From IMG/VR virus record IMGVR_UViG_2884379107_000001: a stretch of 64,000 bases of DNA, one strand, 5' to 3'. Positions 1,721 through 40,495 of the stretch are shown here, piece by piece (position 1 is the stretch's first letter; the number at the start of each line of letters is the position of its first letter). The DNA is from a virus. The translations under genes were made by a program, and so were the position numbers. The notes beneath the pieces were generated by a model. It was given only the letters and a program-made list of their open reading frames with translations, ran no database searches and was not told where the DNA came from.

Positions 1721-4700
1721 AATGGGGTTGGTTTGATGGTTTCTGAATGCGAATGCCCAATGTTTTCTTTCGGTGTCGGCCCGTGCCCAGCGCCAGGCCC
1801 AGTAACAACAGGGGTAATCCATTCTGCGTTGGTCCCGACGGATTGCCCGATATCCATTCGATCTGGATCCGCTCACCCACCGAGGATGGATTCGTAGACA
1901 GACAGGGGTTACTGATGGTGAATTGCAGTTCATTGATAATGCCTTTCCATTCCGTCTTACTTGTCATGTTCCACTCAGCGGTGTGCCATTCGCCATCGGC
2001 CTCCAGATTCTGGGTCACCATGTAGTCACAGCTTACGTTATGGCCATCGGGATAGATCTGGGTAAAGGTGGCGGGTAAGGGATTGGGCGAAAAGTCAGCC
2101 TGCCGCGCCCGTCGCCATTTGAGGGTGATGGCTGGGTTGCTCCGATTATAGGTCACATACCGATAGCGCATGTACACTTTCTTATAATTTACCGCATCCC
2201 ATGCCCCCACGGGTGAGCAGATCCGGCCGCCATCCTGCCAGGTCACATCCCAGTTACTACGCGCGGACTGATAACCCCCATCGGTCGCGTTGAACAGGCT
2301 CCACAGCTGCCGACCCGCCTGATTGAAGCGGTATTCAGGGGTGAGTGAGCGCCGGTTCTTGGTCAGATCGTAGGCCGCTTTCCGAACTTCGGCCAGCGTA
2401 CCAATGACGTAGACTACCGAAAACTTGAAATCGATATTTTTATCCAGCATCAACTGCGGCTGCCAGGACATATAGGACCGGCCAAACCCCTCTCCATCGG
2501 CATAGTTGAACAGGCCGTCGTACTGACCGATCTTAATGCTGGGCGTGGGCAGGATGATGCCAATGCCCCGACCTGTGTTATCATCCCCGCAAAACAGCCA
2601 GTTTTCCGTTACGAAATGAGATCCCTGGGTTTGTCCCGAATTTTCGGGCAACACAATCGAGCGGGACGGTGCGCCCGTATACGGGGCATCGCCATCGTAC
2701 CAGTGCCATCTGCCCAGGCTCCCGTTGGCATGACCGGCGGGCAATTCCTGAAAGCGTGGGTATTGCTGAAAATTATCCCCCCCGTTACTCGAATTTCGAT
2801 CCAGTTTCAGCCGGTACCAAACGCGGGTCATATTGCCCGTCTGATTCACCCACTTCTCCAGAATATCGCCCAGTTTGGTGCTTTGCCCTGTCGTTTCGTG
2901 GGTATTGGGGCCGTTCCACTGAGCCATATCATTCTTGGTATAGTCGATGGTCTTACCCCCCACCGTTCCCCGGCCGTAGGCCAGCAGGGCTGAGCTCTGG
3001 GCGTTGATATCACCAATCTCCAGCGGGTTATCACCAATCTGCATGGAAAACCCATTGTAGGTCCAGGGGGCAGGGTTTCGATACCAAGCCGCCTGAAAAC
3101 TCGACCCCAGATCAATGGTATTATTCTGGCGGCCCTCCTCATCCTTGCGGCCCGGAATGTAGCGCGGATTAGCGACCTGGTTGCGGCCAATGGTCTTATC
3201 CCATATACCCTGAATACCCCCCGCCAGCCCGTTACTGCCGTACGAGCCGGTTTTCAAGTTCAGGACCAGTTTCACCGTGTCCGACTCCTGCGCAACCGTA
3301 TAGCTGCCCGGAATGCTGGTGGAGGCTAATGGCTCATACGAAAAATCACCCGCCAGATTTTCCGCTATCGAATTGCCGATCACGGCCGTGGTAGAGCCCG
3401 TACAGCCCGATACGGTGATGGTAGCTACGGCCGTTTTAGGCGAACAGCCCGTTTTAGTGCTGGTTACCGTATAAGCATAGGGTCCGTTGGTGGTAGGCGC
3501 TACGGCAGTGACCGATTGACCCAGCGCCGAAAAGCCCGACCGTGCCCAGCTAAAGCCAAGACCCGTGGCGGCTGATCCCGAAACGGTGGAGGCTAATGTA
3601 AATGAATTACCACAACTAACGCTTAGACTCGTAGCCGAAAGGGTATAGTTACACGACACGCCCGTACTGGCCACCATGGACAGTTCGGATTTGACCACCG
3701 CCGGGGGCGTCGGATGTGAGGAAATAATGGCCTCCCGGTAATCCCCCCGCCAGGTGATGGTTTCGGATAGCAGGCTCTTGAACTGAAAATACAGATCTTT
3801 TGGCAACAGACCGACGGCCGCATCGGGCAGGCGGAACCATTCCACCCCCGCTTTTCTGCCCTTGATGCGAAACTCGTAGCCGGGCGTTACGGGGCCTGCG
3901 CCCTTATTGACCCAGAACGTCACGTCGGTGTAGCGATCGACATCCTGACAGGGCCACCACCAGTAGAGCCAAAGGGCCGGATGGCCATCTTTGACCGCAA
4001 TGCCCCCCACGATAATGGGCTTTCGATAAAACTGATCTTCGGGGGCCGGATTGCCATTGTTAAAGGTGCCCTGATTCTTGATCCAGAGCTTGGGTTGCAC
4101 CATTTGCCAGGGCGTGTCGAATATCCAGTCGAGCAATTTGGCCCGGTGGAATCCCTTCGTGTACATCTCCACACTGGCCAGCGATTTGCCGCCCATATTG
4201 GCCCCCAGTGGCGCTTTGGGCCGCGTTTCAGACCACCCCCTGAGGTAATCCGAAAACAGATACATGCCGATGGCATCGGCTTCGGTCCAGTCGGGATTCA
4301 GGGGCCGGGCATTCAGCTGGGAAAATTGGGCTTCGGTGGTACCAGTAGAGGCCGGCGAAATGCCCGATTCGCTTTCCGCATCAATTCGAAACTGACGAAT
4401 GAAGCGGGCCGCGCCAAACCCGGTCAACCGATCAGTTGACAGCGGCAAGTGTTTGCTACCCGCCCGAAAGAACCAGTTCGTATAATAACGGGCGAAAATG
4501 CCATAAAACTTAAGCTGGCTTTTGTAGGCATCCTCATTATAGAGGACCGTCGACTGGCCCGTAATGGTCGTATTGCGCACATCGGTTCGCCAGATCAGCC
4601 CGCCCGACGTGTTTTTCTTATATGTGCCATTGGGGTTTTTCTCAAATAAACTCTGCTCATCCCAGGTATGCTGAATGTAGGAGCCCACGCCCGCAAAGGC

Positions 4701-5801
4701 TTTGCCATCGCGGAACAGGGCCGCCAGATCGGTCGATGCGCCCAGGGGTACTGTTTGCGAACTACCCCGAAAGACCTCATCGACTGTATTCCAGGACATG
4801 TACCGGGGATAGCCCGTTGCGCCATCGATATTGTCAAAATTCGAGGGGTTGACATTGGTAATGTTGGCATGGTCCGACAGACCCGACTTCATGCCCGGCC
4901 CATTGACTTCCGACAACCGGATCAGTTCCTTGGTGATCCAGCCGACCTGATTGTACCACTGCTGGTAGTAGGAAATGCCGTTGTTACGCTCCTTGAATAC
5001 CTCATGATTGACGCTGAAGTAATCCACCCCACCGCCTTTCCAGTCGGCCTGCTGAAAGGTCTGGTACCAGTACTGGGCGTAGAGTTTGCAGGTTTCCTCA
5101 TCGTCGATGAAGAGGTGTTGCCCCTCGAAATTGCCACTCCCGATGCCTGCCCAGTCGAGTAGTTTTTGCTTTCTGGGATCGCTATTGGATAAGGACTGTG
5201 CCGCATTATAGGCAGCCTGATAGTTGGCCATTTCCAGCGCCCGCTTGAACTGGGTGGGATAGGTATCCCCATCGTTCCAGTGCGCCGATTCGGACGTTCG
5301 GTTCCAGCCCCGGCTCATCAGGGTATTATCATTCATATCCGAAAACAGGGTCCCCGGATAAATAATGATCTTACTGGCATGCGCCGTAAAGGGGGGAAAC
5401 CGGTTATACAGCGCCGTCCCAAGGGCCGTCTGGGGAGCCATCGGGTAGTAATTTCCCAGTAGCCTCGGCACATTTCGAACGCTGTCAGTCAGCACCGGGG
5501 CCGGGGCCGAAACGACCGGATGCGACTGGTAATCGGTACGCGTGTCGTAAAAATTATGGGTGTACTTACCCACAATGGACCCCAGTGAGGGATAGGGCGT
5601 AATGGGCAACGTACCGGTATTGACGGCCGTTAGAAACCCAATATCGCCCGCCTGGGTAAAGGGGTAGATTCGCTTATCGCGAAGGACCGTCTTTTTAACA
5701 ACGGCCCCGTTGACCGTCGTGTTAACGGGCTGAAAGACCAGGTTTTGCGACTGGGCCAGATAGGAGCCCAGCAGGAGCCAGAGAAGAACTAGTTTTTTCA
5801 T
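1692..5801 (-). CDS. 1369-aa protein with a Sec signal peptide, Ig-like middle region and a possible C-terminal anchor
   Basis: N-terminus MKKLVLLWLLLGSYLAQS|Q; Ser/Thr-rich beta repeats at about aa 715-810; C-terminal LPLLLLGLALG followed by RHRKK. Start overlaps the upstream stop. Confidence 0.8.
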   Translation of the reverse strand: MKKLVLLWLLLGSYLAQSQNLVFQPVNTTVNGAVVKKTVLRDKRIYPFTQAGDIGFLTAVNTGTLPITPYPSLGSIVGKYTHNFYDTRTDYQSHPVVSAPAPVLTDSVRNVPRLLGNYYPMAPQTALGTALYNRFPPFTAHASKIIIYPGTLFSDMNDNTLMSRGWNRTSESAHWNDGDTYPTQFKRALEMANYQAAYNAAQSLSNSDPRKQKLLDWAGIGSGNFEGQHLFIDDEETCKLYAQYWYQTFQQADWKGGGVDYFSVNHEVFKERNNGISYYQQWYNQVGWITKELIRLSEVNGPGMKSGLSDHANITNVNPSNFDNIDGATGYPRYMSWNTVDEVFRGSSQTVPLGASTDLAALFRDGKAFAGVGSYIQHTWDEQSLFEKNPNGTYKKNTSGGLIWRTDVRNTTITGQSTVLYNEDAYKSQLKFYGIFARYYTNWFFRAGSKHLPLSTDRLTGFGAARFIRQFRIDAESESGISPASTGTTEAQFSQLNARPLNPDWTEADAIGMYLFSDYLRGWSETRPKAPLGANMGGKSLASVEMYTKGFHRAKLLDWIFDTPWQMVQPKLWIKNQGTFNNGNPAPEDQFYRKPIIVGGIAVKDGHPALWLYWWWPCQDVDRYTDVTFWVNKGAGPVTPGYEFRIKGRKAGVEWFRLPDAAVGLLPKDLYFQFKSLLSETITWRGDYREAIISSHPTPPAVVKSELSMVASTGVSCNYTLSATSLSVSCGNSFTLASTVSGSAATGLGFSWARSGFSALGQSVTAVAPTTNGPYAYTVTSTKTGCSPKTAVATITVSGCTGSTTAVIGNSIAENLAGDFSYEPLASTSIPGSYTVAQESDTVKLVLNLKTGSYGSNGLAGGIQGIWDKTIGRNQVANPRYIPGRKDEEGRQNNTIDLGSSFQAAWYRNPAPWTYNGFSMQIGDNPLEIGDINAQSSALLAYGRGTVGGKTIDYTKNDMAQWNGPNTHETTGQSTKLGDILEKWVNQTGNMTRVWYRLKLDRNSSNGGDNFQQYPRFQELPAGHANGSLGRWHWYDGDAPYTGAPSRSIVLPENSGQTQGSHFVTENWLFCGDDNTGRGIGIILPTPSIKIGQYDGLFNYADGEGFGRSYMSWQPQLMLDKNIDFKFSVVYVIGTLAEVRKAAYDLTKNRRSLTPEYRFNQAGRQLWSLFNATDGGYQSARSNWDVTWQDGGRICSPVGAWDAVNYKKVYMRYRYVTYNRSNPAITLKWRRARQADFSPNPLPATFTQIYPDGHNVSCDYMVTQNLEADGEWHTAEWNMTSKTEWKGIINELQFTISNPCLSTNPSSVGERIQIEWISGNPSGPTQNGLPLLLLGLALGTGRHRKKTLGIRIQKPSNQPHYAKRRAAKS

Positions 5802-6103
5802 GAATTTAAGGAATCGTTGGGTTGACCGGGTTCGGTATCTCCGCCCTCAATAACGGGCTGACTAGGATCAAGTGAGAAGTTGCCTAGGGTCGAGCCGCCA
5901 CCACCCGCGCAATCGCGCAGCTTCCAGCCACTAAACCCGGTAGCCAGTACGGGCCGGGTGGTGGTAACAGCGGCTTTTTTTTGCTCGTAGGTATACGTGT
6001 TGAACAGTGCCAGCGATTCATCACAGCTGAGCGCTTCGCCGTCGTAGGCCCAAATGACAACCGAGCCGTCGGGCTGGGTAAATTCTTTCGTTGCTTGTAG
6101 CAT
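5798..6103 (-). CDS. Hypothetical tail-region protein
   Basis: 101-aa ORF packed between tail genes in the same orientation. Confidence 0.65.
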   Translation of the reverse strand: MLQATKEFTQPDGSVVIWAYDGEALSCDESLALFNTYTYEQKKAAVTTTRPVLATGFSGWKLRDCAGGGGSTLGNFSLDPSQPVIEGGDTEPGQPNDSLNS

Positions 6104-6108
6104 AGCGA

Positions 6109-7668
6109 TTAGGGGGCTAAGGTTATTGCGTCATACCAGGGGCCAAAGCAGCCCTTCGATCCGTTGAAGCCGCCGGACAGTACCGGATAGCCTGCTTTGC
6201 GTGGCTGATCTTCCCATACCATCGTCCAGGCGTCGGGTTCGGCTTGCAGGGCATTCCAGATCTTAGCGGAGAGTTTCGCCGTTGAACTGCCCGTTTCTTC
6301 GTACTTGAGTCGCAGGTAGTACCAGGTGTTCAGGCTGGTCGCAAACGAAGCGGTCGGGCCAATCCCTACCCCGTTATGTACAAACTGGATGGTTACGGCA
6401 TCTTTCAGGCCGAAGTAATAGCCGTCACTAGCTGCTGACCCGTAGCGCAGACCAAGCCCCAGCCGGGAATCAGTGGTAAACGCCGTTGGTTTCAGCAGAC
6501 AAAGCGCCTGATCAGCATTCAGCGAATTCTGGGAGCCGCCCGTAGTAAACTGGAGCATCCGCTGGTCAGCCGAACTGGCCGTATTGGTCTGGCAGAGTTG
6601 CCCGGTGGACCAGCTCCACGTTCCCGCGCTACCGATGAAAGCATAGCCATCCGAGGGGCCTCCCTCTTCGGTAAAGAAATTAAAGCTGAAGTCGTTGGAG
6701 TGGGTTGCCCAGCTGGTATCGGCTAGCTGTCGGGCCTGCGCCCGGTTGATGGTCAGTTTGTGAATGTCCCAGATGGACTGGAAGGCCGAATCGGTATCAC
6801 TGACCCAGATGTTGAGCACCTGATCGGATACACCAGATGCAACACTAATCCGGCGCAGGCCCGTACCCGCATCAAAACCGAAACTTACGCCCGTGGGCAA
6901 AGCCGCCACCGTCGTGGTTGCCAGATCCACAACCTGACGAACGATCAGCGATTGCGAATCACCCGGATCGGAAAACAGATCCGCGTTCAGATCGTAGTGC
7001 TGATCCCCCGATGCCGTAATGAGCTGATCGGCCTGATGGTGATTGACCGTCGGCACCGGGTTATCGGCTTCCCCTTCCCAGTCGGCGTCCAGAATTTCCA
7101 CATCAATACTATCCCCGTCGGTGCCTTCCCAGTCGGCGTCCAGAATCTCCACGTCGATGCTGTCAACGGTTACCACGGGAATAGCCTCATAATCCACCGG
7201 ATTGATGAATACCAATGTGGGTTCGGGTGTTACGACCGTATCGCAGGTGGCCATGAAGTCGCAAATGATCTTTTTGTAAGCCGGATTGGCCATGGCCTTG
7301 GTAAATAGAGTGACTAAGGCCAGGCCCACTTCGGTGTCGGTGGCGGCCGCAATGAGTTCGAATAGCGAACCAGTTCCAATGTCTACCTGCCCTCCGGGAC
7401 TACCCGAAACGACCCGGTTCGATTCGGTAATCTCAAACGGAGCGACCAATACTTTCCCCAATGAGCCGGGCTCATTGTCTGGAATCAAAGCATTGCGGGC
7501 GTAGAGCCAGTAGAGAATCCCGGTTCGAAAATCACCGCCATCGGGGTCCATATTAAAAATCAGCTCCGCCGACCACTCGACCCAGGGTGTGAACAGGCCG
7601 TTCCGTTCGATTCGGTATTCCCAATCAGGCCCCGTGGCCGTGCCGGTGGGTACAAAGGAATAAATCAT
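6109..7668 (-). CDS. Putative tail fibre / receptor-binding protein with a C-terminal lectin-like beta-sandwich
   Basis: Follows the tail-tip gene. C-terminal GYYFGL...TWYYLRLKYE...KLSAKIW...W pattern resembles a concanavalin/LamG-like fold. Confidence 0.6.
   Translation of the reverse strand: MIYSFVPTGTATGPDWEYRIERNGLFTPWVEWSAELIFNMDPDGGDFRTGILYWLYARNALIPDNEPGSLGKVLVAPFEITESNRVVSGSPGGQVDIGTGSLFELIAAATDTEVGLALVTLFTKAMANPAYKKIICDFMATCDTVVTPEPTLVFINPVDYEAIPVVTVDSIDVEILDADWEGTDGDSIDVEILDADWEGEADNPVPTVNHHQADQLITASGDQHYDLNADLFSDPGDSQSLIVRQVVDLATTTVAALPTGVSFGFDAGTGLRRISVASGVSDQVLNIWVSDTDSAFQSIWDIHKLTINRAQARQLADTSWATHSNDFSFNFFTEEGGPSDGYAFIGSAGTWSWSTGQLCQTNTASSADQRMLQFTTGGSQNSLNADQALCLLKPTAFTTDSRLGLGLRYGSAASDGYYFGLKDAVTIQFVHNGVGIGPTASFATSLNTWYYLRLKYEETGSSTAKLSAKIWNALQAEPDAWTMVWEDQPRKAGYPVLSGGFNGSKGCFGPWYDAITLAP
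7073..7174 (-). repeat. 51-bp tandem duplication encoding DSIDVEILDADWEG x2
   Basis: Two near-identical copies of CCTTCCCAGTCGGCGTCCAGAAT.TCCAC.TC.AT.CT.TC. Confidence 0.85.
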
Positions 7669-22398: not shown

Positions 22399-23646
22399 AT
22401 GAATTATAACTTGGTTAGAAATATAGCATGGGGATTATTAGGCTTTGGCATTTCCATATTTATCTATTTTGTTGTGTCATCAAAAATTGACAATCTTCAA
22501 ATATGGAGTAGCAATAAAATAGATTTTGGTATAACAGGGCAGTTTGGCGATTTTATTGGTGGTGTTGTAGGAACCCTATTTTCACTATCAGGGACTTTAC
22601 TGATTTTCTTAACATTTCAAGAACAAAAAGAGCAAAATTATAAGGAGTCAATTCGAAACAATATTGACGGATTCGAGTCAACTTTTTTTGAGTTAATAAA
22701 ATTGCACAGAGAAAATATCAACGAATTGAGTTATACAAGATATGATGAGATTGATACTATAAATGGCGAATTAAGCTCAATGCGAACTGCAACAAGCAGG
22801 AAAGTGTTTAAAATGATATTTCAGCAATTTATTGAATGTTTTAATGAAATAAAAAACTACCCAATTAATGATATTGATAGCGAAATATTAACAAAACCTT
22901 ATAAAGAAAAACTGAAAAAAATTATAGCCAAAGTCAATCCTGATATTAATTTGCACGAAATGGCTTATATTGACATAGCCTATTCCATAATTTATTATGG
23001 AATAGGCTCAGAAGGAGAATCTATTTTAAAAAGTAATTTTTCAAATAGATATGAAAAGGGCTATATAAATAACTTATTAAACTATATTAAATTAAAGCCT
23101 AGGCAGGAGAATAAGCAGCTTTTTGGCGAATGGGTTAAGCTAAAGGTCTTAAAAGACGTAGAATTTAAAAATAAGTTAGCAGAATATATTAAAACTGATA
23201 ATATGAGTTTATTGTCAACTAATGCCTCGGAAACTAAGGATGTGCCTTCACTATTAAATAACAACTATATAAAATATTATGGAGGTCATCAACATAGATT
23301 AGGTCATTATTTTAGGCATTTATTTCAAAGCTATAAATATTTAAACACGTCCACAGTTTTGAGTGAAAAACAAAAGTACTTTTATGGGAAAATGCTTAGA
23401 GCCCAATTATCTACATACGAACAAGCCTTATTGTTTATAAACAGTATTTCAAGTTTAGGAATGAAGTGGGAATTTACCCCAGATACCTCAGATTTATCTG
23501 TACCCAATCCCAAACCTAATGAAAATATCGTTAGAACCGACTTAATTACTACTTACCATTTAATAAAAAACTTGCCCGGCACTCATATTGAAAATTTTGT
23601 CTATAAAACTTACTACCCAAATGTTAAATACGAAACTGAGGAATAA
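22399..23646 (+). CDS. Putative phage abortive infection protein (AbiC-like / putAbiC)
   Basis: N-terminal TM plus GQFGDFIGGVVGTLFS; FESTFFELIKLH; C-terminal LGHYFRHLFQ...YGKMLRAQLSTYEQALLFINS. Confidence 0.8.
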   Translation: MNYNLVRNIAWGLLGFGISIFIYFVVSSKIDNLQIWSSNKIDFGITGQFGDFIGGVVGTLFSLSGTLLIFLTFQEQKEQNYKESIRNNIDGFESTFFELIKLHRENINELSYTRYDEIDTINGELSSMRTATSRKVFKMIFQQFIECFNEIKNYPINDIDSEILTKPYKEKLKKIIAKVNPDINLHEMAYIDIAYSIIYYGIGSEGESILKSNFSNRYEKGYINNLLNYIKLKPRQENKQLFGEWVKLKVLKDVEFKNKLAEYIKTDNMSLLSTNASETKDVPSLLNNNYIKYYGGHQHRLGHYFRHLFQSYKYLNTSTVLSEKQKYFYGKMLRAQLSTYEQALLFINSISSLGMKWEFTPDTSDLSVPNPKPNENIVRTDLITTYHLIKNLPGTHIENFVYKTYYPNVKYETEE

Positions 23647-26594: not shown

Positions 26595-26745
26595 TTATCT
26601 AAACCTTAAAACTTGAATACCCCTATCAGTTCCATACATAAGTATGTGTAATCATAAAATAATTAATACTTTAGGACAAAAGGAAAAATAAGACAGGTAA
26701 TACATAAGTTCCTTGCTCAAAAATAAAGACACTAGTCTAAACTTT

Positions 26746-29250
26746 ATGAAGACAAAATACTTTTTCTTCTCGGTATCAATATTAATGTTATTTGCTTTCA
26801 TCATACCTAGAAAGGCTACTGCGCAAAACGAAATACATGAATATGTAGAAACATCTGACTTGGAACTATGTGAAGGAGATATTTTTACCGTTTTCAATCA
26901 ACAATTCATACAAGCCAAAGCTAAGGTTCTATTTAAAAAAGGATATTGTGGGTCATATGGTGTGCGTCAGTATAGTTACCCTAATGATGCAGAATTTACA
27001 TATAATACTGAAAATTTGATTGAAGTAAATGGTTATTACTATAAGGACTCCTACAATATTGACGAAAGAAAAATAAATTATATAAAGTATGTAGCTAAGC
27101 AATCGACCCAAATAATAGTGCAAAATGTTTCTAATATAGAATATGAATTTGAGGAAAAAACTTGTGATGCTCCAGATTTAATTCGGATTACATATAAATA
27201 CATTTACAATATTCATGTCTCTCCAAAGAAAGCTCCTCAATTATCATATAATAAAATCATTGTACAGAATAATGAAGAGTTAATAAAGCTATCGGTAAAT
27301 GGATGTAATACTCAATACCCTTATGTGCAGAAATTTATCTCTACTAATGAAAATCCCAATCCTCCTAAGTCAAATCAAGGAGGTGGCACGTTAATTAGTA
27401 GCTTTGAGGCTCCTTTTGCATTAGATAAATCTACAACATTTTATGTAAGATGCAAGAATGATTTTTGTGTTAGTGACTGGTCTAACCCTGTGCATATTGA
27501 CGTTCTCCCAACGGTTCAACATTTTCACCAACTCCCTCAAAAACCTTTATTTCAAACCCGAATAAAACTTGCCCAAGGAAGTAGTTTTAAGGTCTGTGCG
27601 GACGGTTCGCAGGCTTCTGTGTTTACTGTTTCACGAGGGGGGTATGATTACAGTCAGGCAGTCATTAAAATACCCCTCGCAGATGTTACTACAGCCGGAA
27701 GCTTTTCTATTATTCAACGAAACCGGGATAGTCTGGTTGTTAGCTATAAGCACCCGGATTATATACAAACAACAGGTATATCAATCACCCTTGTTGCAGG
27801 AGTGTATGCCACCCCAACCAGCACAACGGCCTTGTCTACGTTTGACATTACTGTTTACCATGCTCCGGTGGTGATGGTTCACGGATTTGAATCAGATGCT
27901 TCTGGTTTCAAAAAAATGGAAGATAAGTTAAGTATATCGGGTTGGCCGAGCTTCCTGTTACTTCGAGCTGATTATGGGCCTACCAGTAGGAAACATTTTG
28001 CCGTTAATAAACAAGTGGTACCCCAAGGTATCAACATCCTACTGGGTCAGCTTCGCCATATGGGGATAGCTGCTGGCAAAATGGATGTTATCGGCCATAG
28101 TATGGGGGGGCTATTAATTCGGCAGTATTCACAAAGTACTGAGTATGAAAATGATATTCACAAGGTTGTCACGCTAAACACACCACATTCTGGATCGCAA
28201 TTCGCAAACATAAGTAAAGACTTGTCGCTTAATCCCTTAAATGCTTTCCGTGACTTATTTGCTCTTGGAGTTAACGCATGGGTCGATGATGGGGCCGTAA
28301 CGGATTTAGCAGTTGGGAGTGATGCGATTAATAGTTTGAATCAAAGTGATAATCGAGTACGTCATCTTTTGCCAATTCATACAATTGTTACTACTTACCC
28401 TTATGTATATAAGTCACCTAGTGACCGAGAAGGTAATTTTTTGCTAAATAATTTTGTAATGGTATTAGGTGATTTGTTTAGTTTGAACCTTAATAATACA
28501 TATGGTGAATCAACTCATGATTTAGTGGTAACCCTAAGTAGTCAACAAGGAGGACTTTCTGGCTCCTGTGTTGATTTAATTACAAATCAGATTCATTTAG
28601 GATCAATGGAAAATGATCAAGTCATCACCAAATTCATGTTTTTACTACAACAGCCTAGCACTTCCCTTAATTTCTGTCAGAATGGCTTTTCTCCTCCTAC
28701 TCTTACATACACAAAGGTATTTTTAGCCCCTAAAGTAAATATTCAGTCCGCCAGAACAGCCTTGGCTTCCATAAAAATTAATTTACCAAATCAAGGTAAA
28801 ATAGTAAAAGGAGGTAGTTCTGTTCAACTACAGGCAACTGGAAGTGGCTTATCAAGTCTATGGCTTTTTGTTAGTTATTCGCCCGACTCTACTTACAATG
28901 GATTTAAGAACGGTAATACAGCCAATTTTACGTTTACAATAGATAAGAATATTGGAAAGCGATTAGTAGTTGCAATTGGTAAAACATCCACTGGGGAATT
29001 CGTTGCTGATTCAACCTACTTCTACGTCAGTAATAATTTCTGCGAATCCCTTCAATCAGGTAATTGGACAGCCTCCTCTACCTGGTCATGTGGCCATGAG
29101 CCAACCATAGCTGATATAGTAACGATCAATTCCAGTCATATTATTACCGTATCGACTAGCACCGCCCAAACCCAAAGAATTGTTTTTAACGGTGGAACAA
29201 TCAAGTATACACTTTCTGGAAATAAAATTTATTTAAAAATGTATGAATAA
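26746..29250 (+). CDS. Secreted alpha/beta-hydrolase (lipase/PGAP1-like) with an Ig-like domain and a C-terminal G8-like module
   Basis: Signal peptide MKTKYFF...ATA|Q; VVMVHGF, GHSMGG nucleophile elbow, TLNTPHSGS, DLVV; C-terminal SGNWTASSTWSCGHEP. Confidence 0.8.
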   Translation: MKTKYFFFSVSILMLFAFIIPRKATAQNEIHEYVETSDLELCEGDIFTVFNQQFIQAKAKVLFKKGYCGSYGVRQYSYPNDAEFTYNTENLIEVNGYYYKDSYNIDERKINYIKYVAKQSTQIIVQNVSNIEYEFEEKTCDAPDLIRITYKYIYNIHVSPKKAPQLSYNKIIVQNNEELIKLSVNGCNTQYPYVQKFISTNENPNPPKSNQGGGTLISSFEAPFALDKSTTFYVRCKNDFCVSDWSNPVHIDVLPTVQHFHQLPQKPLFQTRIKLAQGSSFKVCADGSQASVFTVSRGGYDYSQAVIKIPLADVTTAGSFSIIQRNRDSLVVSYKHPDYIQTTGISITLVAGVYATPTSTTALSTFDITVYHAPVVMVHGFESDASGFKKMEDKLSISGWPSFLLLRADYGPTSRKHFAVNKQVVPQGINILLGQLRHMGIAAGKMDVIGHSMGGLLIRQYSQSTEYENDIHKVVTLNTPHSGSQFANISKDLSLNPLNAFRDLFALGVNAWVDDGAVTDLAVGSDAINSLNQSDNRVRHLLPIHTIVTTYPYVYKSPSDREGNFLLNNFVMVLGDLFSLNLNNTYGESTHDLVVTLSSQQGGLSGSCVDLITNQIHLGSMENDQVITKFMFLLQQPSTSLNFCQNGFSPPTLTYTKVFLAPKVNIQSARTALASIKINLPNQGKIVKGGSSVQLQATGSGLSSLWLFVSYSPDSTYNGFKNGNTANFTFTIDKNIGKRLVVAIGKTSTGEFVADSTYFYVSNNFCESLQSGNWTASSTWSCGHEPTIADIVTINSSHIITVSTSTAQTQRIVFNGGTIKYTLSGNKIYLKMYE

Positions 29251-29379
29251 CTAATGCTCAAAGTGGATCTTATTTTGGAAAGTCCACCAATAAGTATGGA
29301 TTTATGTTCTCATTTATAGGCTTTTAATAAAACAAGTGCTAGCTACCATTTACCAACGTAATACTCTAAAAAGCGGACT

Positions 29380-29898
29380 TCACAAGTACAAAGTTTTTCT
29401 CCTCTTCAGGCGAACAAATTGATAGCGTTAGAAGGGAAAACCTTAAGGCAAAAGTTGATAGCACTATTATTTTGGGCTTTAAGTTCGGCATGAGTAAGCA
29501 GGACTACGATTATAACTTTAGTCGGCTTATAGCCAATAAAACCTTATCTCATTACAGTAAAACCGAATACGACTTAGATATTGAAGCAGACTCACTACCT
29601 ACCTTTGTAAGTGGCCTATTTACCCCCATATTTAATAAAAAATGAATTAGTTGCACTAAAGATGTTAGCACATGGAACGACTAGCGCCACACCTGTAGGC
29701 TCAATAGTTTTGAGTAAATACCTTTCCAAGCATTTTGGGCAAAAGTACTTGTCCGCTCGAAGTATTTCTGATATATGGATAAAGGGAGGGGTTGAGGTAA
29801 AAAGAGAAAAGGTTCAGACTGATCCGAACCTAAGCTCTCTTACTTATGATGTAGTTATGTTTCGGCCAACTCAACTTGCTTTGTTGGCGCATCTCTAA
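29380..29898 (+). pseudogene. Frameshifted, 5'-truncated inverted copy of the 14737-15330 lipoprotein gene
   Basis: GEQIDSVRRENLKAKVD...MSKQDYDYNFSRL, then a frameshift near 29636, then NELVALKMLAHGTTSATP...FRPTQLALLAHL. Confidence 0.85.
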
Positions 29899-29972
29899 TT
29901 TTCTCCTCCTAATACCTGGCATAAAGGAAGGCATAGCAAAGTGTTTATAGTTTAACAAAGATTCAACAAAAG

Positions 29973-30938
29973 ATGGAGGAAAATCAAAAGAAAAGTCTCA
30001 ATATCCGTTCTTTACCTGGTGTTATTGTTAAATTAGATAAAACAAAATTTTATTTATTAGAACAGACAAGTCAGAGCGAAGCATATGCCATAGAAGAACT
30101 TTCACAAGCCGACATTGATAAAATCAATTTTAGCAACAATGTAATGCTTGAGTACATGTACTTTAAAAGAAAAAAACTAGAAATAAAATTAAACTATGAT
30201 GAATTCCTAGAAATTAACAAAACATATAATGAGCAAATGGCAAAAATTGAGCCAGCTATATTTGACATAAACTATGATAGTGAAATAAGCTTTATAAATA
30301 CAAATAGAATCTTTACCAATTATATTAATTCATGTAGAATTTTTATTGATCATTTAGATGGAAAATTGAATCACAAATATGGAAAAGAGTCTTTCGAGTA
30401 CAAGACTTTTAAGCAAGCTAAAAGTTATTGTTACGATAATTATTTCTCATATAAATTCTTTTATCATTTAAGGAACTATGCTGAACATGTTGACTTCCCG
30501 ATACATGATGTAATTGTTGAACACAGTAGTGATGAAAAAGGTAGTGACAAAGAAATTGAAACTTCATTTAATTTATTCTTTAATAGAGATGAGTTATTGA
30601 AATGTCCTAATATTTTTAAAAAAATTGGAAATGAGTTAAAAGTTAAGGAAGAGCAAATTCCTGTTTTGCCATTAGTTGAAGAATATGAGGCCACTATTGA
30701 AATTATCCTTGATAGCCTTTTAATAGCAGAAAGAAATTTTTACATAAACAATATGAACGAATTAAAAAATATTTTTGATAGACGAAAAATGGGAGGCACG
30801 CTTTATTTACTTAATATTTATGAAGATGAAGAAAAGCAACTTAAAATGAACTTTCCAGGATTGCGTTTTGATGTTGTCAAGTTTATGATTGCGGATTATA
30901 AAGACTTGGATCCGCGCTATGGTTTTAGTGAGAAATAA
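29973..30938 (+). CDS. Hypothetical protein with a HEPN-like Rx4H motif
   Basis: Helical protein containing YKFFYHLRNYAEHVDFPI (RNYAEH at 30471-30488). Confidence 0.6.
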   Translation: MEENQKKSLNIRSLPGVIVKLDKTKFYLLEQTSQSEAYAIEELSQADIDKINFSNNVMLEYMYFKRKKLEIKLNYDEFLEINKTYNEQMAKIEPAIFDINYDSEISFINTNRIFTNYINSCRIFIDHLDGKLNHKYGKESFEYKTFKQAKSYCYDNYFSYKFFYHLRNYAEHVDFPIHDVIVEHSSDEKGSDKEIETSFNLFFNRDELLKCPNIFKKIGNELKVKEEQIPVLPLVEEYEATIEIILDSLLIAERNFYINNMNELKNIFDRRKMGGTLYLLNIYEDEEKQLKMNFPGLRFDVVKFMIADYKDLDPRYGFSEK

Positions 30939-30985
30939 CAATAAAAAACGATACTTTACAAATTTGAAATAATTGAAATAATTTT

Positions 30986-33292
30986 ATGGCTATAAACACT
31001 ATAGTTGATGAGGTTAAAAAAAATGCACCAAAAGGCCTAAGCGAAGAAGAGTATTGCAAATGGCTTTCAGACTATTTGAATTCAAAGCTCAATAAACATA
31101 ATTACTGTAGAGAGTATATTGAAGAAAATACCAAAAAGAGTGCAACAGCTATAAGTTTCTTGATAGATTTATCCAATAAGCTAGCTAATGAATTAGAAAA
31201 TAATGGTCAGCATTGGATGGCACTATTGAAAATTCGCTCAAATAGGTTTAAGTTTATAAATTATAATAAAGGTGAATTTTTATATTTTGACTTTAGCTAT
31301 CTAGCTAATATTTACAATGAGATTAATTATTTACATGAATCAATTTATAAAATATTAAAGGAAATTGATAGGTATAATATAATCTACATACTAGATGATA
31401 TTAATTATATTGTATCAATAGAAAGTGAAATAGAGTTGCAGAAAAAAAATAAACTAAAACTCTTAAGTTATAAGCTTATTAACATTAGAAAATCAATTAG
31501 TAAAAATATAAAATCTTTAATATATCGACCTAAAATCATATTACTAATTATAGCCTTTGTTGTTCCTGTAATCATATACTTTAATCCTTTTCATATTATA
31601 GTTAAGGCAGACTCACAACAAACTATTACATTATCTTTACTAGGCGCAATCACTTCGTTTCTAGGTTTTTTGGTCGTTTTCCTGCAAATATCCTATGAAA
31701 ATCAAAAGAAGCTATATGGTCAGTATGTCAAAAAACTATTGTTCAATGAAACATGGCAGGATTTAATATTAATTTTTACAATTACAGCTGGATGCTGTCT
31801 ATTATCATCATTATTAAAAGATGACGACTTTTTTCATGTCGGAGATATTGCCTTCAATGTAGCTATATTGGGTTTTATACTTTTTTTTATTTTCCTAATC
31901 CCGGGAACGAAAAAAATTCTCAACAATTCCTTTTCTATTACCGAATTAAAAAGACTTGTTAATAGGATCGACTTAGAAGCAGTTCAGCAACATGTACAAA
32001 CTGTTAGCCGAGCCAATTTTTTTGAAAGTGCATTAAATATTTATGAGCATAATCCGATAGCCATTCTTAATGATATAATAAAAAATAGTTTAATTAATAA
32101 AGAATATCGAATAGTTAATTTATTAATAAATGAAATTACTAATCGCTATGAATTCCTATTAGATGGGATAAAAAATAAATCATTTTTCGATGAATCGTTA
32201 ACTTGGAAAACTCATACTTATAAAGAAACTATTGAGTCATTTATAGAATTTAGTCATTTTGTATATAATAATTGTTTAAAGGAAAGTTCAGATAATTACG
32301 CATCTATGATTGTTAGTAGCCAAAGAAGCCTTGTAGTTAAAATGGCAATTCTTGGCGTTAAAATGGAAGAGATAAGGCCTTTATTAAATACTATTCGTGA
32401 ATTTGTTGAAACATTTGCTAATCAATCAAAATATAAATTAACAATTGATGGTCTTGATGAATATTATTATTGTTTATATGAGATTATTAATCATAACACG
32501 CCCAAAGAGGAAGATTTGTCCTATTCAGAAGGTAGTAGAAAGTTGATATATGATGACAAAAATTACGACAATTATAATGCAGAGCTGGAATGGCATATCA
32601 TAAGAGAAGCTATAGTAAGAAATTATGAAGATTTGATAAAATATTGTATTGAAAGATTGCCCAGTAATGACAAAAATTTGACAATAAAGATAATAGAAAT
32701 CTATAAGAGATCATTAAATTTCATATTGCCTGAAAAGTCAAATCTCGATGAACGTAGAATTTTTGAGCTTTTGCACTCATATTGTGCATTTGTTTCTGAA
32801 CTTTATAAAGAATTATTAAATAGTATTAGTAATAATGAAAAAATATGGTCCGAACCTTTTTTCTCTTTTGAAGTAATAGACCTTTTGAAGAAAAATAAAA
32901 ATTATTCATTCATCATGGCAAACTACTGGCTTTGGTGGATGGAATTTAAAATTAATGAAAAAAAGCTAAAATTAATTTTTTTTGACGAAATCAAGGAATT
33001 CATTTTTTCAATTCTGAGGGAAAATATTTCCATTGAAGTAACTTCAGAATATTTAATTGCGTGCATTAATCTATATAATTTAATTTTTGAAAACTATAAA
33101 AATGACACTTTTAAGCCTTATTCAAATATAATTGAGAGCTCTTTAAATCAACTCGAAAGTATTGAGAACAAATTAAATGAAAACCCTGATATTTACAACA
33201 AAGTCATTTTAGCTGTAAATAATGCAAAAACTTTATATGAACCACAAAAAGTTAAATCAATGAAGGCTGTTAAGAAACCTAAAAATAATTAA
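30986..33292 (+). CDS. 768-aa protein with four central TM helices and large helical N- and C-terminal domains
   Basis: Hydrophobic segments at about aa 183-310; very AT-rich coding sequence; 47 bp after the HEPN-like gene. Confidence 0.75.
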   Translation: MAINTIVDEVKKNAPKGLSEEEYCKWLSDYLNSKLNKHNYCREYIEENTKKSATAISFLIDLSNKLANELENNGQHWMALLKIRSNRFKFINYNKGEFLYFDFSYLANIYNEINYLHESIYKILKEIDRYNIIYILDDINYIVSIESEIELQKKNKLKLLSYKLINIRKSISKNIKSLIYRPKIILLIIAFVVPVIIYFNPFHIIVKADSQQTITLSLLGAITSFLGFLVVFLQISYENQKKLYGQYVKKLLFNETWQDLILIFTITAGCCLLSSLLKDDDFFHVGDIAFNVAILGFILFFIFLIPGTKKILNNSFSITELKRLVNRIDLEAVQQHVQTVSRANFFESALNIYEHNPIAILNDIIKNSLINKEYRIVNLLINEITNRYEFLLDGIKNKSFFDESLTWKTHTYKETIESFIEFSHFVYNNCLKESSDNYASMIVSSQRSLVVKMAILGVKMEEIRPLLNTIREFVETFANQSKYKLTIDGLDEYYYCLYEIINHNTPKEEDLSYSEGSRKLIYDDKNYDNYNAELEWHIIREAIVRNYEDLIKYCIERLPSNDKNLTIKIIEIYKRSLNFILPEKSNLDERRIFELLHSYCAFVSELYKELLNSISNNEKIWSEPFFSFEVIDLLKKNKNYSFIMANYWLWWMEFKINEKKLKLIFFDEIKEFIFSILRENISIEVTSEYLIACINLYNLIFENYKNDTFKPYSNIIESSLNQLESIENKLNENPDIYNKVILAVNNAKTLYEPQKVKSMKAVKKPKNN

Positions 33293-33344
33293 TTTTAGAT
33301 AGACATAATTCTCTAAAAGTTTCAGTATGCCTATCCCCCCCCTT

Positions 33345-33515
33345 CTACCTCCTCACTATCCGCCAAACCGTAGACCTCGCCTTAATCCCAAACTTTCTCA
33401 TCACTTCCTGCTCAACCGCCGTTTTCATCACTCCCGGCTTCACCACTAAGGCGCTATAACAGGCCCGTATTTTCTCCCAACGCTTTTCCCGTTTCCTTCG
33501 CTGAGGTGTTTTCAT
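33345..33515 (-). CDS. 56-aa basic HTH-like protein (below the track cutoff)
   Basis: MKTPQRRKREKRWEKIRACYSALVVKPGVMKTAVEQEVMRKFGIKARSTVWRIVRR; start overlaps the stop of the truncated TMP. Confidence 0.55.
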   Translation of the reverse strand: MKTPQRRKREKRWEKIRACYSALVVKPGVMKTAVEQEVMRKFGIKARSTVWRIVRR

Positions 33516-33796
33516 TTCACTAGAGTGGTTAAGTTTTTAAACATTCTCTCCAACAACTGCTGGAATTCACCCCGAACTTTGAGAATCTGGGCGGGTAGCT
33601 GAGTAAGGGCCGTAAACGAGAAGTACCCGGCTGCCAGTTGGCCTAACCGGGTAAACTGGGCATCGAGCTTATTGGTCTCCCGAACGGTGGTATTGGACAG
33701 GCCCAGCACCCGGCGCTCCATAGCGTCGAGTTGAGACTTCCAGTTCACATCGTTGATACTCGCATCGAACGCCAGTGGCCCGCCCAGGTTATTCAT
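33512..33796 (-). pseudogene. Truncated native tape measure gene (about 82 homologous codons)
   Basis: MNNLGGPLAFDASIND...MERRVLGLSNTTVRET...VRGEFQQL aligns with the N-terminus of the 10258-14523 TMP and is coupled to the chaperone gene. Homology ends near 33550. Confidence 0.88.
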
Positions 33797-34572: not shown

Positions 34573-36930
34573 CTAGCGGCACCGAATAGAGACTACGCAA
34601 AAATTGCCAGCTGTCCCACTGGCCACCACCGCCTTTATGTACACGCCCGCTGCCAGCCCTGAAATTCCGCTTGGCCAGTTGGTTGCATCGGGCGTAAATG
34701 TTCCAAATTTTTGAAACTGATTGAAGTGGATGCGGCCCAGCAGATAGTCAGAACTGGAACTGATTGGCCCCAGAAAATAGCCCCCTGACTGATTGTTGGT
34801 GACGTACAGATCGACGTCCATTGCCTGCGAACTGGTTTCCCGGTAGGCCGTAACGGCGCTAAATGTCATTACCTGCGTGGAGATCGGAGCCGGTGCACCT
34901 CCTGTAGCTCCAACGGTCAGCGGAAGTGCCCCATTTAGATTGATCTGCATGGTTAGCGCATCAGCCTGAGTCGTCGCTAACCAGGTAAGATTATCTACAT
35001 ACAGCAGACATAAGCCCGTTCCTAGTGTGGTGTAATCGACCCCGGTTTTAGCGAACCGAAAGGGATAACTGCCTGCGCCGTTGGGATAACTTTTAGAAAA
35101 CGTGGCCGTTACGGTAAAGCTGACGCCTGTTGCAAAATTGTAAATCTTGAAGCCCGTTAAGCGGCTGACTTCCCCCACTTTTGAGGCTCCCCCATTCAGC
35201 ATGGCATCTTCGTAGCGAGTCAGGTTACTGAGTGGCCCCCGTCCTGTTGATCGGGTCACTGAGCCGAACACGCCCCCCAGAGCATCATTATTGATGTCGA
35301 AAAAACCATTACCCACGCTCACCACATTGACCAGCGTTGTATAATAGGCAGACAATGCCGCTGCCGGTGGTGTGCGCACTGCTGTTGTGAACGGCAAACC
35401 GGGACGAAAAAACCGTGAAATGCCCTGGGCGATTCGCTGACTGCCGATATTGGTTGGGTGTAGGACATCACCCTGAAAGTTACCCTGCCCTTCGGGTTCG
35501 AGAAACGTCTGCCAGTCGTCAACCCGATAGGCACCCAGGAACTTATGCGTGTCGAATACCTTCACCCGACTATTCCGGTTCATCCATTCGAGGTAGATGG
35601 TGCGGATGTTGGCCGATTTCTGAGCGGCATCATTGGCATCGACGTTGTTGGTGTACGTGAGCGGTTCAGTGCCAAACGCAATCGGTGGCGGCATATCCAG
35701 GATGATATCGGCCTTGGTATTAGCCAAAAGGAAATTCACGCACAACGCCAGATTGGCCCTTGCCGTGGCGGTGGCGTTCGTATTGAGTCGAAAGTCGTTA
35801 GTCCCAAGCGAGAACTCAATCGCCTGGGGATTGGCGTTGACGGCCTGCCACAAATTGGGGACCGTGTTATTGTTGGCGTAATCGACGGGCGCTGCATTCT
35901 GATCACCAGACGTAATACTAGCCGCCCATAAGGAAAGGGGCGAACCATTACTGGCCAGGTTGTAAGAAGTCCAGCCTTCGAATATACCACCCTTCGCCAA
36001 CCAGTCATTCTCGTAAGCGTTTCGCCAGGGCGATTGGCCCATTTTCCTCGAATCGCCAATATGCACCAACACCGACCCACGTGGATAACTATAGGCGTTG
36101 GTATTTGACCCGGCAGTGCTGTAAGCCGCTGCCTGATCCGCACTAGCCTGAGCAGCCGTTTTATAGCCTAGGGCCGTACTGGCCGATCCAGCCGCTTCGC
36201 CTGCCTTTGTGGTGGCGATATTCGCCTGCTGACTGGCCGTAGTAGCTGAACCAGCAGCCGCAGCTTTATCTTGCGCAACCTGAACGGCTTTCTGATTCAC
36301 ATCAACCTGCTGGGTGTCGATGTTGAATTTTATCGAGTCAATAGCTGATTTAACACCATCAACGTGTGCTGTATCATCCGCTACCTGTTCAGATTTCGCC
36401 GTAATGGTGGTCTGAACTAAATCGAAGGTGCCCAATAAGTCATTTTTTGCCTGTTCAGCATCAGCCGCAAAGCCCTGAGCTTCATCTCGAAACGTTTCTG
36501 TCTGATCTCTGTATTCAGCCGTGAGAAAATCCCCTGTATAGGGAACGGCTACGGTAACATCGGCAGCGGTATAGATCAGAACTTCCCCAGAATCAACAGG
36601 AGCAGAAAGACTCAGCCGTGCCCGATCCTTATTGGTAACAATACTACCTGCCCAGACAACGCGCCCATCGAACAGAATCTCCTGATAGCCCTCAACGGGA
36701 AGTAAACTGGTCTGGGCATATTCATGCCGAATTTTTCGACCAACCAGGTTAGCTGTAGGCTGTTGCTCATCCGGAAGTGGATCCGTCGTACTTGAATCCT
36801 TATAGGCTACTGTCGTAACCAGTGTGGGTAGAACATAGTCAACGGGCAGTGTATATTCCCGCCAGAAGGAATTTCCCCGAAAGATGGAATAATTAAGTGG
36901 AGCGATCTGGTCAGCGAGGGTATTGTCCAT
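34573..36930 (-). CDS. Fibre-like structural protein with an SGNH/GDSL esterase domain
   Basis: Ala-rich fibre repeats, then HIGDS, LGTND and DVLHP (complete SGNH motifs). Confidence 0.8.
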   Translation of the reverse strand: MDNTLADQIAPLNYSIFRGNSFWREYTLPVDYVLPTLVTTVAYKDSSTTDPLPDEQQPTANLVGRKIRHEYAQTSLLPVEGYQEILFDGRVVWAGSIVTNKDRARLSLSAPVDSGEVLIYTAADVTVAVPYTGDFLTAEYRDQTETFRDEAQGFAADAEQAKNDLLGTFDLVQTTITAKSEQVADDTAHVDGVKSAIDSIKFNIDTQQVDVNQKAVQVAQDKAAAAGSATTASQQANIATTKAGEAAGSASTALGYKTAAQASADQAAAYSTAGSNTNAYSYPRGSVLVHIGDSRKMGQSPWRNAYENDWLAKGGIFEGWTSYNLASNGSPLSLWAASITSGDQNAAPVDYANNNTVPNLWQAVNANPQAIEFSLGTNDFRLNTNATATARANLALCVNFLLANTKADIILDMPPPIAFGTEPLTYTNNVDANDAAQKSANIRTIYLEWMNRNSRVKVFDTHKFLGAYRVDDWQTFLEPEGQGNFQGDVLHPTNIGSQRIAQGISRFFRPGLPFTTAVRTPPAAALSAYYTTLVNVVSVGNGFFDINNDALGGVFGSVTRSTGRGPLSNLTRYEDAMLNGGASKVGEVSRLTGFKIYNFATGVSFTVTATFSKSYPNGAGSYPFRFAKTGVDYTTLGTGLCLLYVDNLTWLATTQADALTMQINLNGALPLTVGATGGAPAPISTQVMTFSAVTAYRETSSQAMDVDLYVTNNQSGGYFLGPISSSSDYLLGRIHFNQFQKFGTFTPDATNWPSGISGLAAGVYIKAVVASGTAGNFCVVSIRCR

Positions 36931-39412: not shown

Positions 39413-40495
39413 TTAAGACTGAACAGTCGTTGAATCGAGCAAATAGATTTGATCGACGTTGGAGATAACCGGAACCACACGCGCCTGGGAGGAGGTGAAC
39501 TCCGCCAATGGATCGTTCTTCCGATACTTCGATACCAGTATGAAGTTGCCCGCTTTCTGATACGTCACGTTCGTCACGGGATGACCTTCTTCTGCTAGTT
39601 TGGCATACACAAGCGTACCTACCTGGGTCGAGGTTAGGAATACAGCCGCGCCGGTTGCCCAGGGCTTCACCGCCGTTTGGGTACCGTTCTTTTCGTAGCG
39701 AACCGAACGCTCGACGATCTGGAAGGTAAAGCCGTAGCGATCCGAGACAAACGAATTCATCTGGCTAAGCGACGGAGCCGGAATAGCCGAACCCACAAAA
39801 CTCTGCGAGAAGGCGAAGAGCTGTTTTGCCTGCGTGGTGTTGACCAGGTTATTGAACGCTGACCGGTCCAGCATGCAGACCGTGATGGTATTACCATCCG
39901 CACTGGCTTTATCCAGAATGCGTTGGATATCATCGAACGGGGTTGCCGTCGAAGCCGACGACCACAATACAGCCACACCGAACTTATTGGCGCTTGCGTA
40001 CCCATAATCAATCCGAATACCTGTACCCACGTTCTCCGTGTCTTCAATCAGGGTAACCCCCGTTGACAGACCCCGCAGAAACATTTCTTCGCAGCGCTCG
40101 TATACGCCGGTAATGACCTTCGGGGTATCGGCAAACAGCTTGGCCACAATCTGCTGATCAGATGCACCCGTAGCCACCAGCGTATCCAGATCGGTTAGTT
40201 GCCGCTCGTTGAGTTGCAACTTCATACCCAGCTTAGGAATGTCTCCGTTGGCCTTGCTGATCGAGTCACGCTTTTTGAGCGGTAACGACGAATCCATCGC
40301 CACCACATCCGCCATAATCGCGGTGTTAGCCGTGTTGATGGCCTCCCATTTGCCGGTTACTGACAGATCTTCCCGAAGCATGCTCCGGTGCAGGTACGTC
40401 AGTGGGTTGTTGGTACCGTTGAGCGTTTCAACGATCCGAATGGTAATGCCGGGGAGGTATTTGGCAACCCATTGAAGAAATAACGATGTCTCCAT
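39413..40495 (-). CDS. Major capsid protein (phage capsid E-like)
   Basis: 360 aa; MADVVAMDSSLPLKKR...GDIPKLGMK. Follows the scaffold and decoration genes. Confidence 0.85.
   Translation of the reverse strand: METSLFLQWVAKYLPGITIRIVETLNGTNNPLTYLHRSMLREDLSVTGKWEAINTANTAIMADVVAMDSSLPLKKRDSISKANGDIPKLGMKLQLNERQLTDLDTLVATGASDQQIVAKLFADTPKVITGVYERCEEMFLRGLSTGVTLIEDTENVGTGIRIDYGYASANKFGVAVLWSSASTATPFDDIQRILDKASADGNTITVCMLDRSAFNNLVNTTQAKQLFAFSQSFVGSAIPAPSLSQMNSFVSDRYGFTFQIVERSVRYEKNGTQTAVKPWATGAAVFLTSTQVGTLVYAKLAEEGHPVTNVTYQKAGNFILVSKYRKNDPLAEFTSSQARVVPVISNVDQIYLLDSTTVQS

Follow-up and report, generated by a model that had tools for sequence, protein, structure and literature searches.

Two adjacent genes in a prophage

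The window analysed here is a stretch of 64,000 nucleotides of viral DNA (IMG/VR record IMGVR_UViG_2884379107_000001). It holds a siphovirus-type prophage, with the gene for the major head protein (39413-40495) and the tail genes on the minus strand, and, among a set of cargo genes, two plus-strand genes that are the subject of this report: gene 1, whose product contains a motif reminiscent of the catalytic motif of HEPN ribonucleases (RNases), and gene 2, whose product has four transmembrane (TM) segments. An earlier reading of the window from its letters alone (the sequence-only reading) had described the two genes as co-oriented, 47 bp apart and very AT-rich. The coordinates turn out to be exact, and the GC contents of both genes (Table 1) compare with a mean of 0.465 for the window and of ~0.50-0.55 for the flanking phage structural genes. 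As homologues of both are present in other assemblies, we regard genes 1 and 2 as real genes rather than as chance open reading frames (ORFs) in AT-rich DNA.

We argue, with a probability that we put at about 0.62, that genes 1 and 2 are separately acquired accessory (moron-type) genes that lie side by side by chance, gene 1 encoding a stand-alone HEPN abortive-infection RNase and gene 2 an independent membrane factor.

Relatives of the two genes are not found together

Relatives of gene 1 were compared at 11 loci: an integrative element that also carries an integrase and a VapE primase (L001), a metagenomic phage (L002), two short contigs (L004, L005) where the neighbour is a divergent XRE gene, a conjugative element (L006) equipped with TrwB and ArdC, one chromosomal locus (L007), four genomes of Bacteroidota (L014-L017) and a plasmid of Bacillus subtilis NCIB 3610, where the gene lies by prophage-like terminase genes. 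Gene 2 relatives are near gene 1 relatives at none of them (0/11). Conversely, the loci with gene 2 relatives (L003, L008, L009/L010, L018 and L019) have no relative of gene 1 nearby. Members of the gene 2 family are met in a prophage, near an IS110 element accompanied by a DUF3800 gene, near an integrase and in a cluster of small ORFs that lack annotation, and the weakest match to the family (L019) sits among PGI, UvrA and RmuC genes. Integrases, IS110 and conjugation genes figure in the surroundings of gene 1 and gene 2 relatives.

Degraded copies of a partner were likewise absent when both proteins were searched by tblastn against all 17 fetched loci, and an all-versus-all BLASTP comparison of 15 regions (the window and 14 loci) revealed no conserved neighbour for either family. 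The ORFs upstream of the gene 1 relatives in L001 (379 amino acids) and L007 (329 amino acids) are unrelated to each other, so that no conserved upstream partner emerges there either. In a set of 400 further genomes from the phylum, the gene 1 family occurs in four and the gene 2 family in two, with no genome containing both. Finally, the L002 phage is related to the prophage in the window, with which it shares the tape measure protein (TMP) from end to end, XRE, AntA, an integrase-like gene and a homologue of gene 1; it has nothing like gene 2.

These comparisons bear directly on the proposal of the sequence-only reading that the two proteins form a pair, a membrane sensor with an RNase effector. 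That reading had itself named a failure of the genes to co-occur elsewhere as telling against the pair, and the two families are found together neither at the compared loci nor in the 400 genomes. In its most explicit form, the idea would be that the helical-repeat (solenoid) part of gene 2 recognises some component of a phage, whereupon gene 2 activates the HEPN RNase encoded by gene 1 or sets it free. We consider such a dedicated two-gene system very improbable: not only is co-occurrence lacking, but a related phage carries the gene 1 homologue alone, most members of both families stand alone, and no PADLOC model, single- or multi-gene, matches either protein (E up to 1). This last result agrees with the earlier remark that the pair was not recognised as a named system.

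Some features of the locus nevertheless speak for a link and hence against chance adjacency. Genes 1 and 2 share their very low GC content and their orientation, the gap between them is short, and a scan of the gap found no terminator hairpin, so that co-transcription, or a functional link that evolved locally, is possible. There is also a loose analogy with DARNA (PD-T7-3), in which a HEPN domain and a helical-repeat sensor are part of one protein (bioRxiv 10.64898/2026.02.22.705581). Note, though, that DARNA is one soluble polypeptide, whereas here the HEPN-like and solenoid parts are encoded by separate genes that never co-occur elsewhere, the solenoid protein is membrane-anchored and PADLOC returns no match. 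A less likely reading is that the two genes, once brought together in this phage, came to cooperate in the way of a DARNA that is split and tethered to the membrane. The fallback of the sequence-only reading, two independent defence genes, fares better in that independence fits the comparisons; the defence function of either gene is still a matter of inference.

The gap itself contains one sigma-70-like match, and a 9-bp unit (TTGAAATAA) is repeated 2.2 times at 30964-30983, immediately before the start codon of gene 2. Scans of the region for promoters, terminators and the Bacteroidetes -7 box gave counts at chance level, promoter-like matches being no commoner than in shuffled sequence.

Table 1. 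Features of the locus, with positions in the window; residue numbers refer to the product of the gene named.
Feature	Position	Strand	Remarks
Full-length TMP	10258-14523		
Gene 1	29973-30938	+	321 amino acids; GC 0.277
Gene 1, predicted HEPN-type four-helix core (residues ~45-252)	30105-30728	+	AlphaFold2 secondary structure
Gene 1, R122-x3-D126-H127 cluster in helix 2	30336-30353	+	At least 90% conserved; includes candidate upstream acidic residue
Gene 1, RNYAEH (R167-H172), putative catalytic Rx4H	30471-30488	+	R167, N168, Y169 and H172 invariant
Intergenic gap	30939-30985	+	47 bp
Gene 2	30986-33292	+	768 amino acids; GC 0.264
Gene 2, N-terminal helical domain (residues 1-160)	30986-31465	+	Limited to long family members; from match ranges and model
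Gene 2, four-TM module (residues 181-307), DUF2254-like	31526-31906	+	From hydropathy
Gene 2, C-terminal alpha-solenoid of helical repeats (residues 317-765)	31934-33280	+	Predicted domain
Truncated TMP N-terminus	33512-33796	-	94-amino-acid ORF; marks right edge of cargo block

Gene 1 probably encodes a HEPN protein of a family of its own

Six relatives of gene 1 were recovered with its single sequence, and a profile of those six recovered at least 207 proteins of ~280-320 amino acids, nearly all of them labelled 'hypothetical', from Bacteroidota, Bacillota and further phyla. The closest relatives are 50%, 45% and 43% identical to gene 1. The only profile match is phrog_30874, a family of unannotated function (E 1.9e-14); models of Pfam, NCBIfam and PADLOC do not match, and tblastn against 50,697 phage records gave no match.

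A lone Rx4H in one protein is not significant. What gives the motif meaning is that it is invariant across relatives: in an alignment of 62 sequences that are 17-48% identical to gene 1, the invariant columns number only six (N111, R167, N168, Y169, H172 and P176), four of which fall inside LRNYAxH. A further set of positions is conserved in at least 90% of the sequences, namely R112, R122, D126, H127 and an FxYRFxYxL block preceding the motif. Both conserved blocks are kept in a homologue of 279 amino acids from B. subtilis (WP_009968507.1), where the motif reads RNLAQH. Its gene (L033 4084-4923; NZ_CP034485.1 79293-80132) lies on the 84-kb plasmid of strain NCIB 3610, flanked by genes for a TPR protein and a DNA ligase and with terminase and portal genes close by; a gene of this type is also present on 41 similar Bacillus plasmids. 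We found nothing in the literature that connects pBS32 with HEPN.

An AlphaFold2 model of gene 1 based on the 62-sequence alignment is confident (predicted local distance difference test, pLDDT, 91; predicted template modelling score, pTM, 0.86). Its core consists of helices 1 (45-90), 2 (101-136), 3 (158-172) and 4 (231-252), with an inserted helix (141-156) ahead of helix 3, a beta-hairpin insert (179-204) after the motif and an extra helix (254-268); strands from the N terminus, the inserts and the C terminus together make up a beta-sheet. The sequence-only reading had placed RNYAEH in a helical context, and in the model residues 167-172 indeed form the end of helix 158-172. In other words, LRNYAxH closes core helix 3 of a bundle of four and is followed by a loop, as in HEPN RNases.

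How well does this agree with what is known of HEPN domains? In the survey by Anantharaman et al. (PMC3710099), the residue following the conserved R is mostly N, D or H, helix 2 carries a conserved acidic residue, typically in Ex3[KR], and insertions between helices 2 and 3 are typical; domains without catalytic activity also exist. With respect to the signature Rx4-6H, R167 and H172 are invariant in the 62 members and kept in the Bacillus plasmid homologue, and N168, the polar residue after R, is invariant as well. The topology described in that survey fits the model of gene 1, which is a predicted structure only, and the beta-hairpin after the motif resembles the arrangement in Csx1. VIA-align matches of the model to HEPN structures span residues ~57-255, with generic helical bundles ranking above them.

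Several results weigh against this assignment. The cluster in helix 2 is Rx3DH rather than the typical Ex3[KR], with D126 at least 90% conserved. No HEPN-family sequence model matches gene 1 or its 62 relatives, and seven named relatives gave no match to Pfam HEPN models up to E 10. Profile searches of PDB sequences, with alignments of 7 and of 62 sequences, returned only designed or apolipophorin helices (E>0.2). In a Foldseek search, which the sequence-only reading had suggested as a check for the HEPN fold, the model had no match in PDB and BFVD at E<=0.001. The named search of the ESM Atlas yielded no credible family, and its structure search yielded three clusters of hypothetical proteins (TM-score 0.73-0.77).

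Could gene 1 then be no nuclease at all, but a helical-bundle regulator of the phage that binds nucleic acid or protein and uses RNxxxH as a binding or structural motif? The failure of all HEPN sequence models, the empty Foldseek searches, the fact that generic bundles score above HEPN structures and the existence of HEPN domains without catalysis (PMC3710099) would all sit comfortably with such a protein. We nonetheless think it unlikely: an invariant R, polar N and H together with a near-invariant Asp/His in helix 2 is the pattern of active HEPN families (PMC3710099), non-catalytic HEPNs characteristically lose the motif, and in the model the motif occupies the position that the HEPN fold predicts.

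One relative of gene 1 bears the UniRef name 'Cthe-2314-like HEPN domain-containing protein', and the corresponding Pfam family, PF18730 (HEPN_Cthe2314), does resemble gene 1 in being bacterial and stand-alone, 230-300 amino acids long and endowed with Rx4H; its gene associations are given as 'none detected' (PMC3710099). We rejected membership in this family. The PF18730 hidden Markov model misses gene 1, the 62 relatives, the genome of the window and the genome of the named relative. Alignment of the gene 1 family with 10 genuine PF18730 proteins by hhalign gave nothing (probability 0.1, the PF18730 alignment being shallow), a result that also counts against the HEPN assignment as such. Taking conservation and model together, gene 1 is probably a member of the HEPN superfamily that belongs to a family of its own and not to Cthe_2314.

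Many HEPN toxins are held in check by antitoxins, for example in HepT-MNT, where the antitoxin is a nucleotidyltransferase, or by the RNA antitoxin of AbiF, and one might suspect that gene 1 is the toxin of such a toxin-antitoxin pair. The 722 bp upstream of gene 1 (29251-29972), which contain just two weak ORFs of 57 and 95 amino acids, offer room for a small-protein or RNA antitoxin. This is quite unlikely, because repeats of any kind looked for (tandem, direct, inverted) are absent from 29200-30050, and so is the tandem array or structured RNA that accompanies the toxin gene in type III-like systems such as AbiF or ToxIN, with no Rfam match in 29000-33700; nor are there family matches for the two small ORFs or a conserved neighbour across the compared loci; in addition, the upstream gaps in L001 and L002 are merely 67-160 bp long. 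With regard to HepT-MNT in particular (PDB 7ae2, 8xdj, 5yep), no MNT-type neighbour is present at any gene 1 locus, and gene 1 differs from HepT in being more than twice as long, in having beta-sheet inserts and in lacking detectable sequence similarity.

Gene 2 encodes a rare membrane protein with large helical domains

The gene 2 family is rare: an exhaustive HMMER search of 1.84 billion proteins found 35 representatives, where a word-indexed search had given one relative. Members fall into a long class (720-765 amino acids) and a short class (555-630 amino acids) that is without the first ~160 residues. Models of Pfam, NCBIfam and PADLOC gave no accepted match for gene 2, and tblastn gave none in 50,697 phage records or in plasmid records. 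The only close relative (L003) is 44% identical and is encoded by two ORFs in differing frames, one for the N-terminal domain (4492-5139, 215 amino acids) and one for the TM and solenoid parts (5196-6908, 570 amino acids), with the region of TM1 thinly covered. The split may be natural, or it could stem from an assembly error or from a frameshift that made the gene a pseudogene; forms lacking the N-terminal domain are common in the family.

Hydropathy and an AlphaFold2 model (pLDDT 81, pTM 0.76) uphold the description of gene 2 in the sequence-only reading as four central TM segments between two large helical domains. The hydrophobic segments span residues ~181-203, 213-235, 256-277 and 287-307, and the successive loops contain 5/1/4/1/5 lysines and arginines, from which an N-in/C-in topology is predicted. 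Both large helical domains are accordingly predicted to be cytoplasmic.

The TM module connects gene 2 weakly with DUF2254 (PF10011), a family of predicted membrane proteins that have a similar four-TM module. Twelve of 28 aligned relatives match PF10011 at E<0.01 (best E 8.4e-9); in the two relatives scanned in detail, the match covers only PF10011 positions ~10-160, the TM part, and falls below the curated cut-off. In a feature search of the ESM Atlas, the nearest clusters contain proteins of 590-750 amino acids, 12-24% of which carry DUF2254. Unlike in DUF2254 proteins, the C-terminal part is replaced in gene 2 by an alpha-solenoid of ~450 residues, and the long forms add the N-terminal domain. 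Two results tell against the connection and what might be drawn from it: gene 2 itself gets no DUF2254 score, the genome having a genuine DUF2254 gene elsewhere, and we found no function for DUF2254 in the literature. Alignments by hhalign of the gene 2 family with that genuine DUF2254 protein (E 0.054, TM1-TM2 only) and with the AbiC-like protein of the island gave E-values of 0.05-0.06 over short TM stretches and are not evidence; two weak matches that gene 2 gave on the first pass, Bax1-I (E 0.096) and DUF4231 (E 0.23), were likewise not used as evidence.

The DUF2254 connection invites a reading of gene 2 in which it has nothing to do with defence and is a lysogenic-conversion or housekeeping-type membrane protein, such as a transport or stress relative of DUF2254 carried as cargo. 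Many genomes, this one included, have a DUF2254 protein encoded by an ordinary chromosomal gene, and the L019 relative of gene 2 has the PGI, UvrA and RmuC genes for neighbours. On the other hand, the likeness to DUF2254 is limited to the TM module, the solenoid of some 450 residues and the N-terminal domain being specific to the rare family, and the distribution is patchy (2/400 genomes), with mobile contexts. On balance, a role outside defence is possible but the less favoured of the options.

A proposed explanation and its relation to known systems

Under our preferred explanation, in which the two genes arrived separately, R167-N168-x3-H172 together with D126 would form a metal-independent RNase site in gene 1, completed across a homodimer if the analogy with other HEPN enzymes holds. 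The beta-sheet subdomain packed on the core would be the likely regulatory or sensing part. Gene 1 would be silent in the lysogen and, once a superinfecting phage was sensed, would cleave tRNA, rRNA or mRNA in the manner of ApeA and DARNA. The analysis shows that the genes are real, to which families they belong, how the motif is conserved, which folds and topology are predicted and that the two families do not co-occur; we infer the RNase activity, the dimerisation, the trigger and any anti-phage phenotype.

ApeA, reportedly described by Gao and colleagues in 2020, is a single-protein HEPN anti-phage system. In common with what we propose for gene 1, it works without a partner gene and combines HEPN with an additional, non-catalytic portion, and it serves as our working model. 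ApeA brings about abortive infection through cleavage of the tRNA anticodon (bioRxiv 10.64898/2026.01.26.701840). The two proteins also differ: gene 1 misses all PADLOC models, among which ApeA would be included, and the Pfam HEPN models, and ApeA assembles into large, doughnut-shaped oligomers that have a pocket for a ligand. The accessory part of gene 1 is a predicted beta-sheet subdomain.

As to gene 2, we envisage an inner-membrane protein on a DUF2254-like four-TM anchor, whose cytoplasmic solenoid would bind a protein or nucleic-acid ligand. Most likely, it would serve the prophage at the membrane as a factor for exclusion or abortive infection, although it may act by superinfection exclusion, by abortive membrane damage or in something unrelated to phages. 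Two proteins offer a possible functional analogy. HK97 gp15, a moron that lies in the tail-gene region, and P22 SieA are, like gene 2, prophage-encoded inner-membrane proteins and independent morons (PMC3594210, PMC10883804). The analogy is one of setting only: we found no sequence or fold relationship, and gene 2 is a much larger protein, with sizeable cytoplasmic domains.

More tentatively, one might go a step further and see in the gene 1 family an undescribed single-protein HEPN abortive-infection system with a beta-sheet sensor, and in the gene 2 family another such novelty, a defence or exclusion protein in which a solenoid sensor is coupled to the four-TM module; as a whole, we hold this extended claim to be doubtful.

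If the gene 1 family is an active HEPN RNase, it would be a sizeable addition to the stand-alone HEPN immunity proteins (ApeA, DARNA, AbiD/F). Such proteins are already known, and gene 1 would represent a new family among them with a distinctive accessory domain; since that domain is different, the trigger is probably different too. Because no model of Pfam, NCBIfam or PADLOC detects the family, it at present escapes genome annotation and censuses of defence systems. The homologue on the B. subtilis NCIB 3610 plasmid provides a tractable test system. Gene 2, for its part, presents a rare architecture, a membrane-anchored solenoid. More generally, adjacency in a cargo hotspot is in this case no evidence of a system, genes 1 and 2 being separate cassettes, which calls for caution with similar calls.

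The cargo block and the tape measure protein remnant

The sequence-only reading had also placed the genes in a cargo region of a prophage, and prophage genes and mosaic cargo are indeed what the window contains. The ~19 kb between a truncated TMP gene and the full-length one hold a response-regulator-like gene, a GIY-YIG homing endonuclease, an AntA antirepressor, a putAbiC protein, a solute-binding protein, an alpha/beta-hydrolase and genes 1 and 2.

A further claim, that the two genes sit right where the native TMP was broken, stands in part. A truncated TMP does adjoin there, but a 56-amino-acid ORF intervenes and the full-length TMP is a separate gene, to whose N-terminus the fragment is 58% identical. 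The fragment comprises ~80 TMP residues (phrog_9959 positions 2-81, E 7.5e-16) followed by 13 unrelated ones, and it is 76.5% identical to the TMP of the L002 phage. Being closer to the latter, the fragment must derive from a different, though related, phage than the full gene. From these sequence comparisons, the 5' end of the TMP gene looks like the product of recombination between two related phages rather than of simple insertion into one gene. The intervening ORF (33345-33515, minus strand) encodes a basic protein, has a phage-like GC content and overlaps the stop codon of the TMP fragment by four bases (ATGA); a Pfam search with it gave no match.

The putAbiC-domain protein (415 amino acids, 22399-23646, plus strand, GC 0.295) matches Pfam putAbiC with E 1.6e-16 and, weakly, PADLOC AbiP with E 3.9e-5, which makes it a further candidate for abortive infection in the cargo block that houses genes 1 and 2.

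Directly upstream of the two genes lies an ORF for a secreted alpha/beta-hydrolase of 845 amino acids (26713-29250, plus strand), lipase/thioesterase-like and with a hydrophobic N-terminal stretch. Its GC content (0.368) is unlike that of genes 1 and 2, and it has a weak LmuA-like match in PADLOC (E 2.5e-4). In the stretch that separates it from gene 1, the two weak ORFs overlap in differing frames, and the stretch may be what is left of a gene that has decayed. On the far side of the cargo block, between the tail genes and the TMP fragment, a protein of 785 amino acids (34573-36930, minus strand) matches a GDSL/SGNH-type hydrolase (E 2.1e-6) and, weakly, a tail-fibre PHROG.

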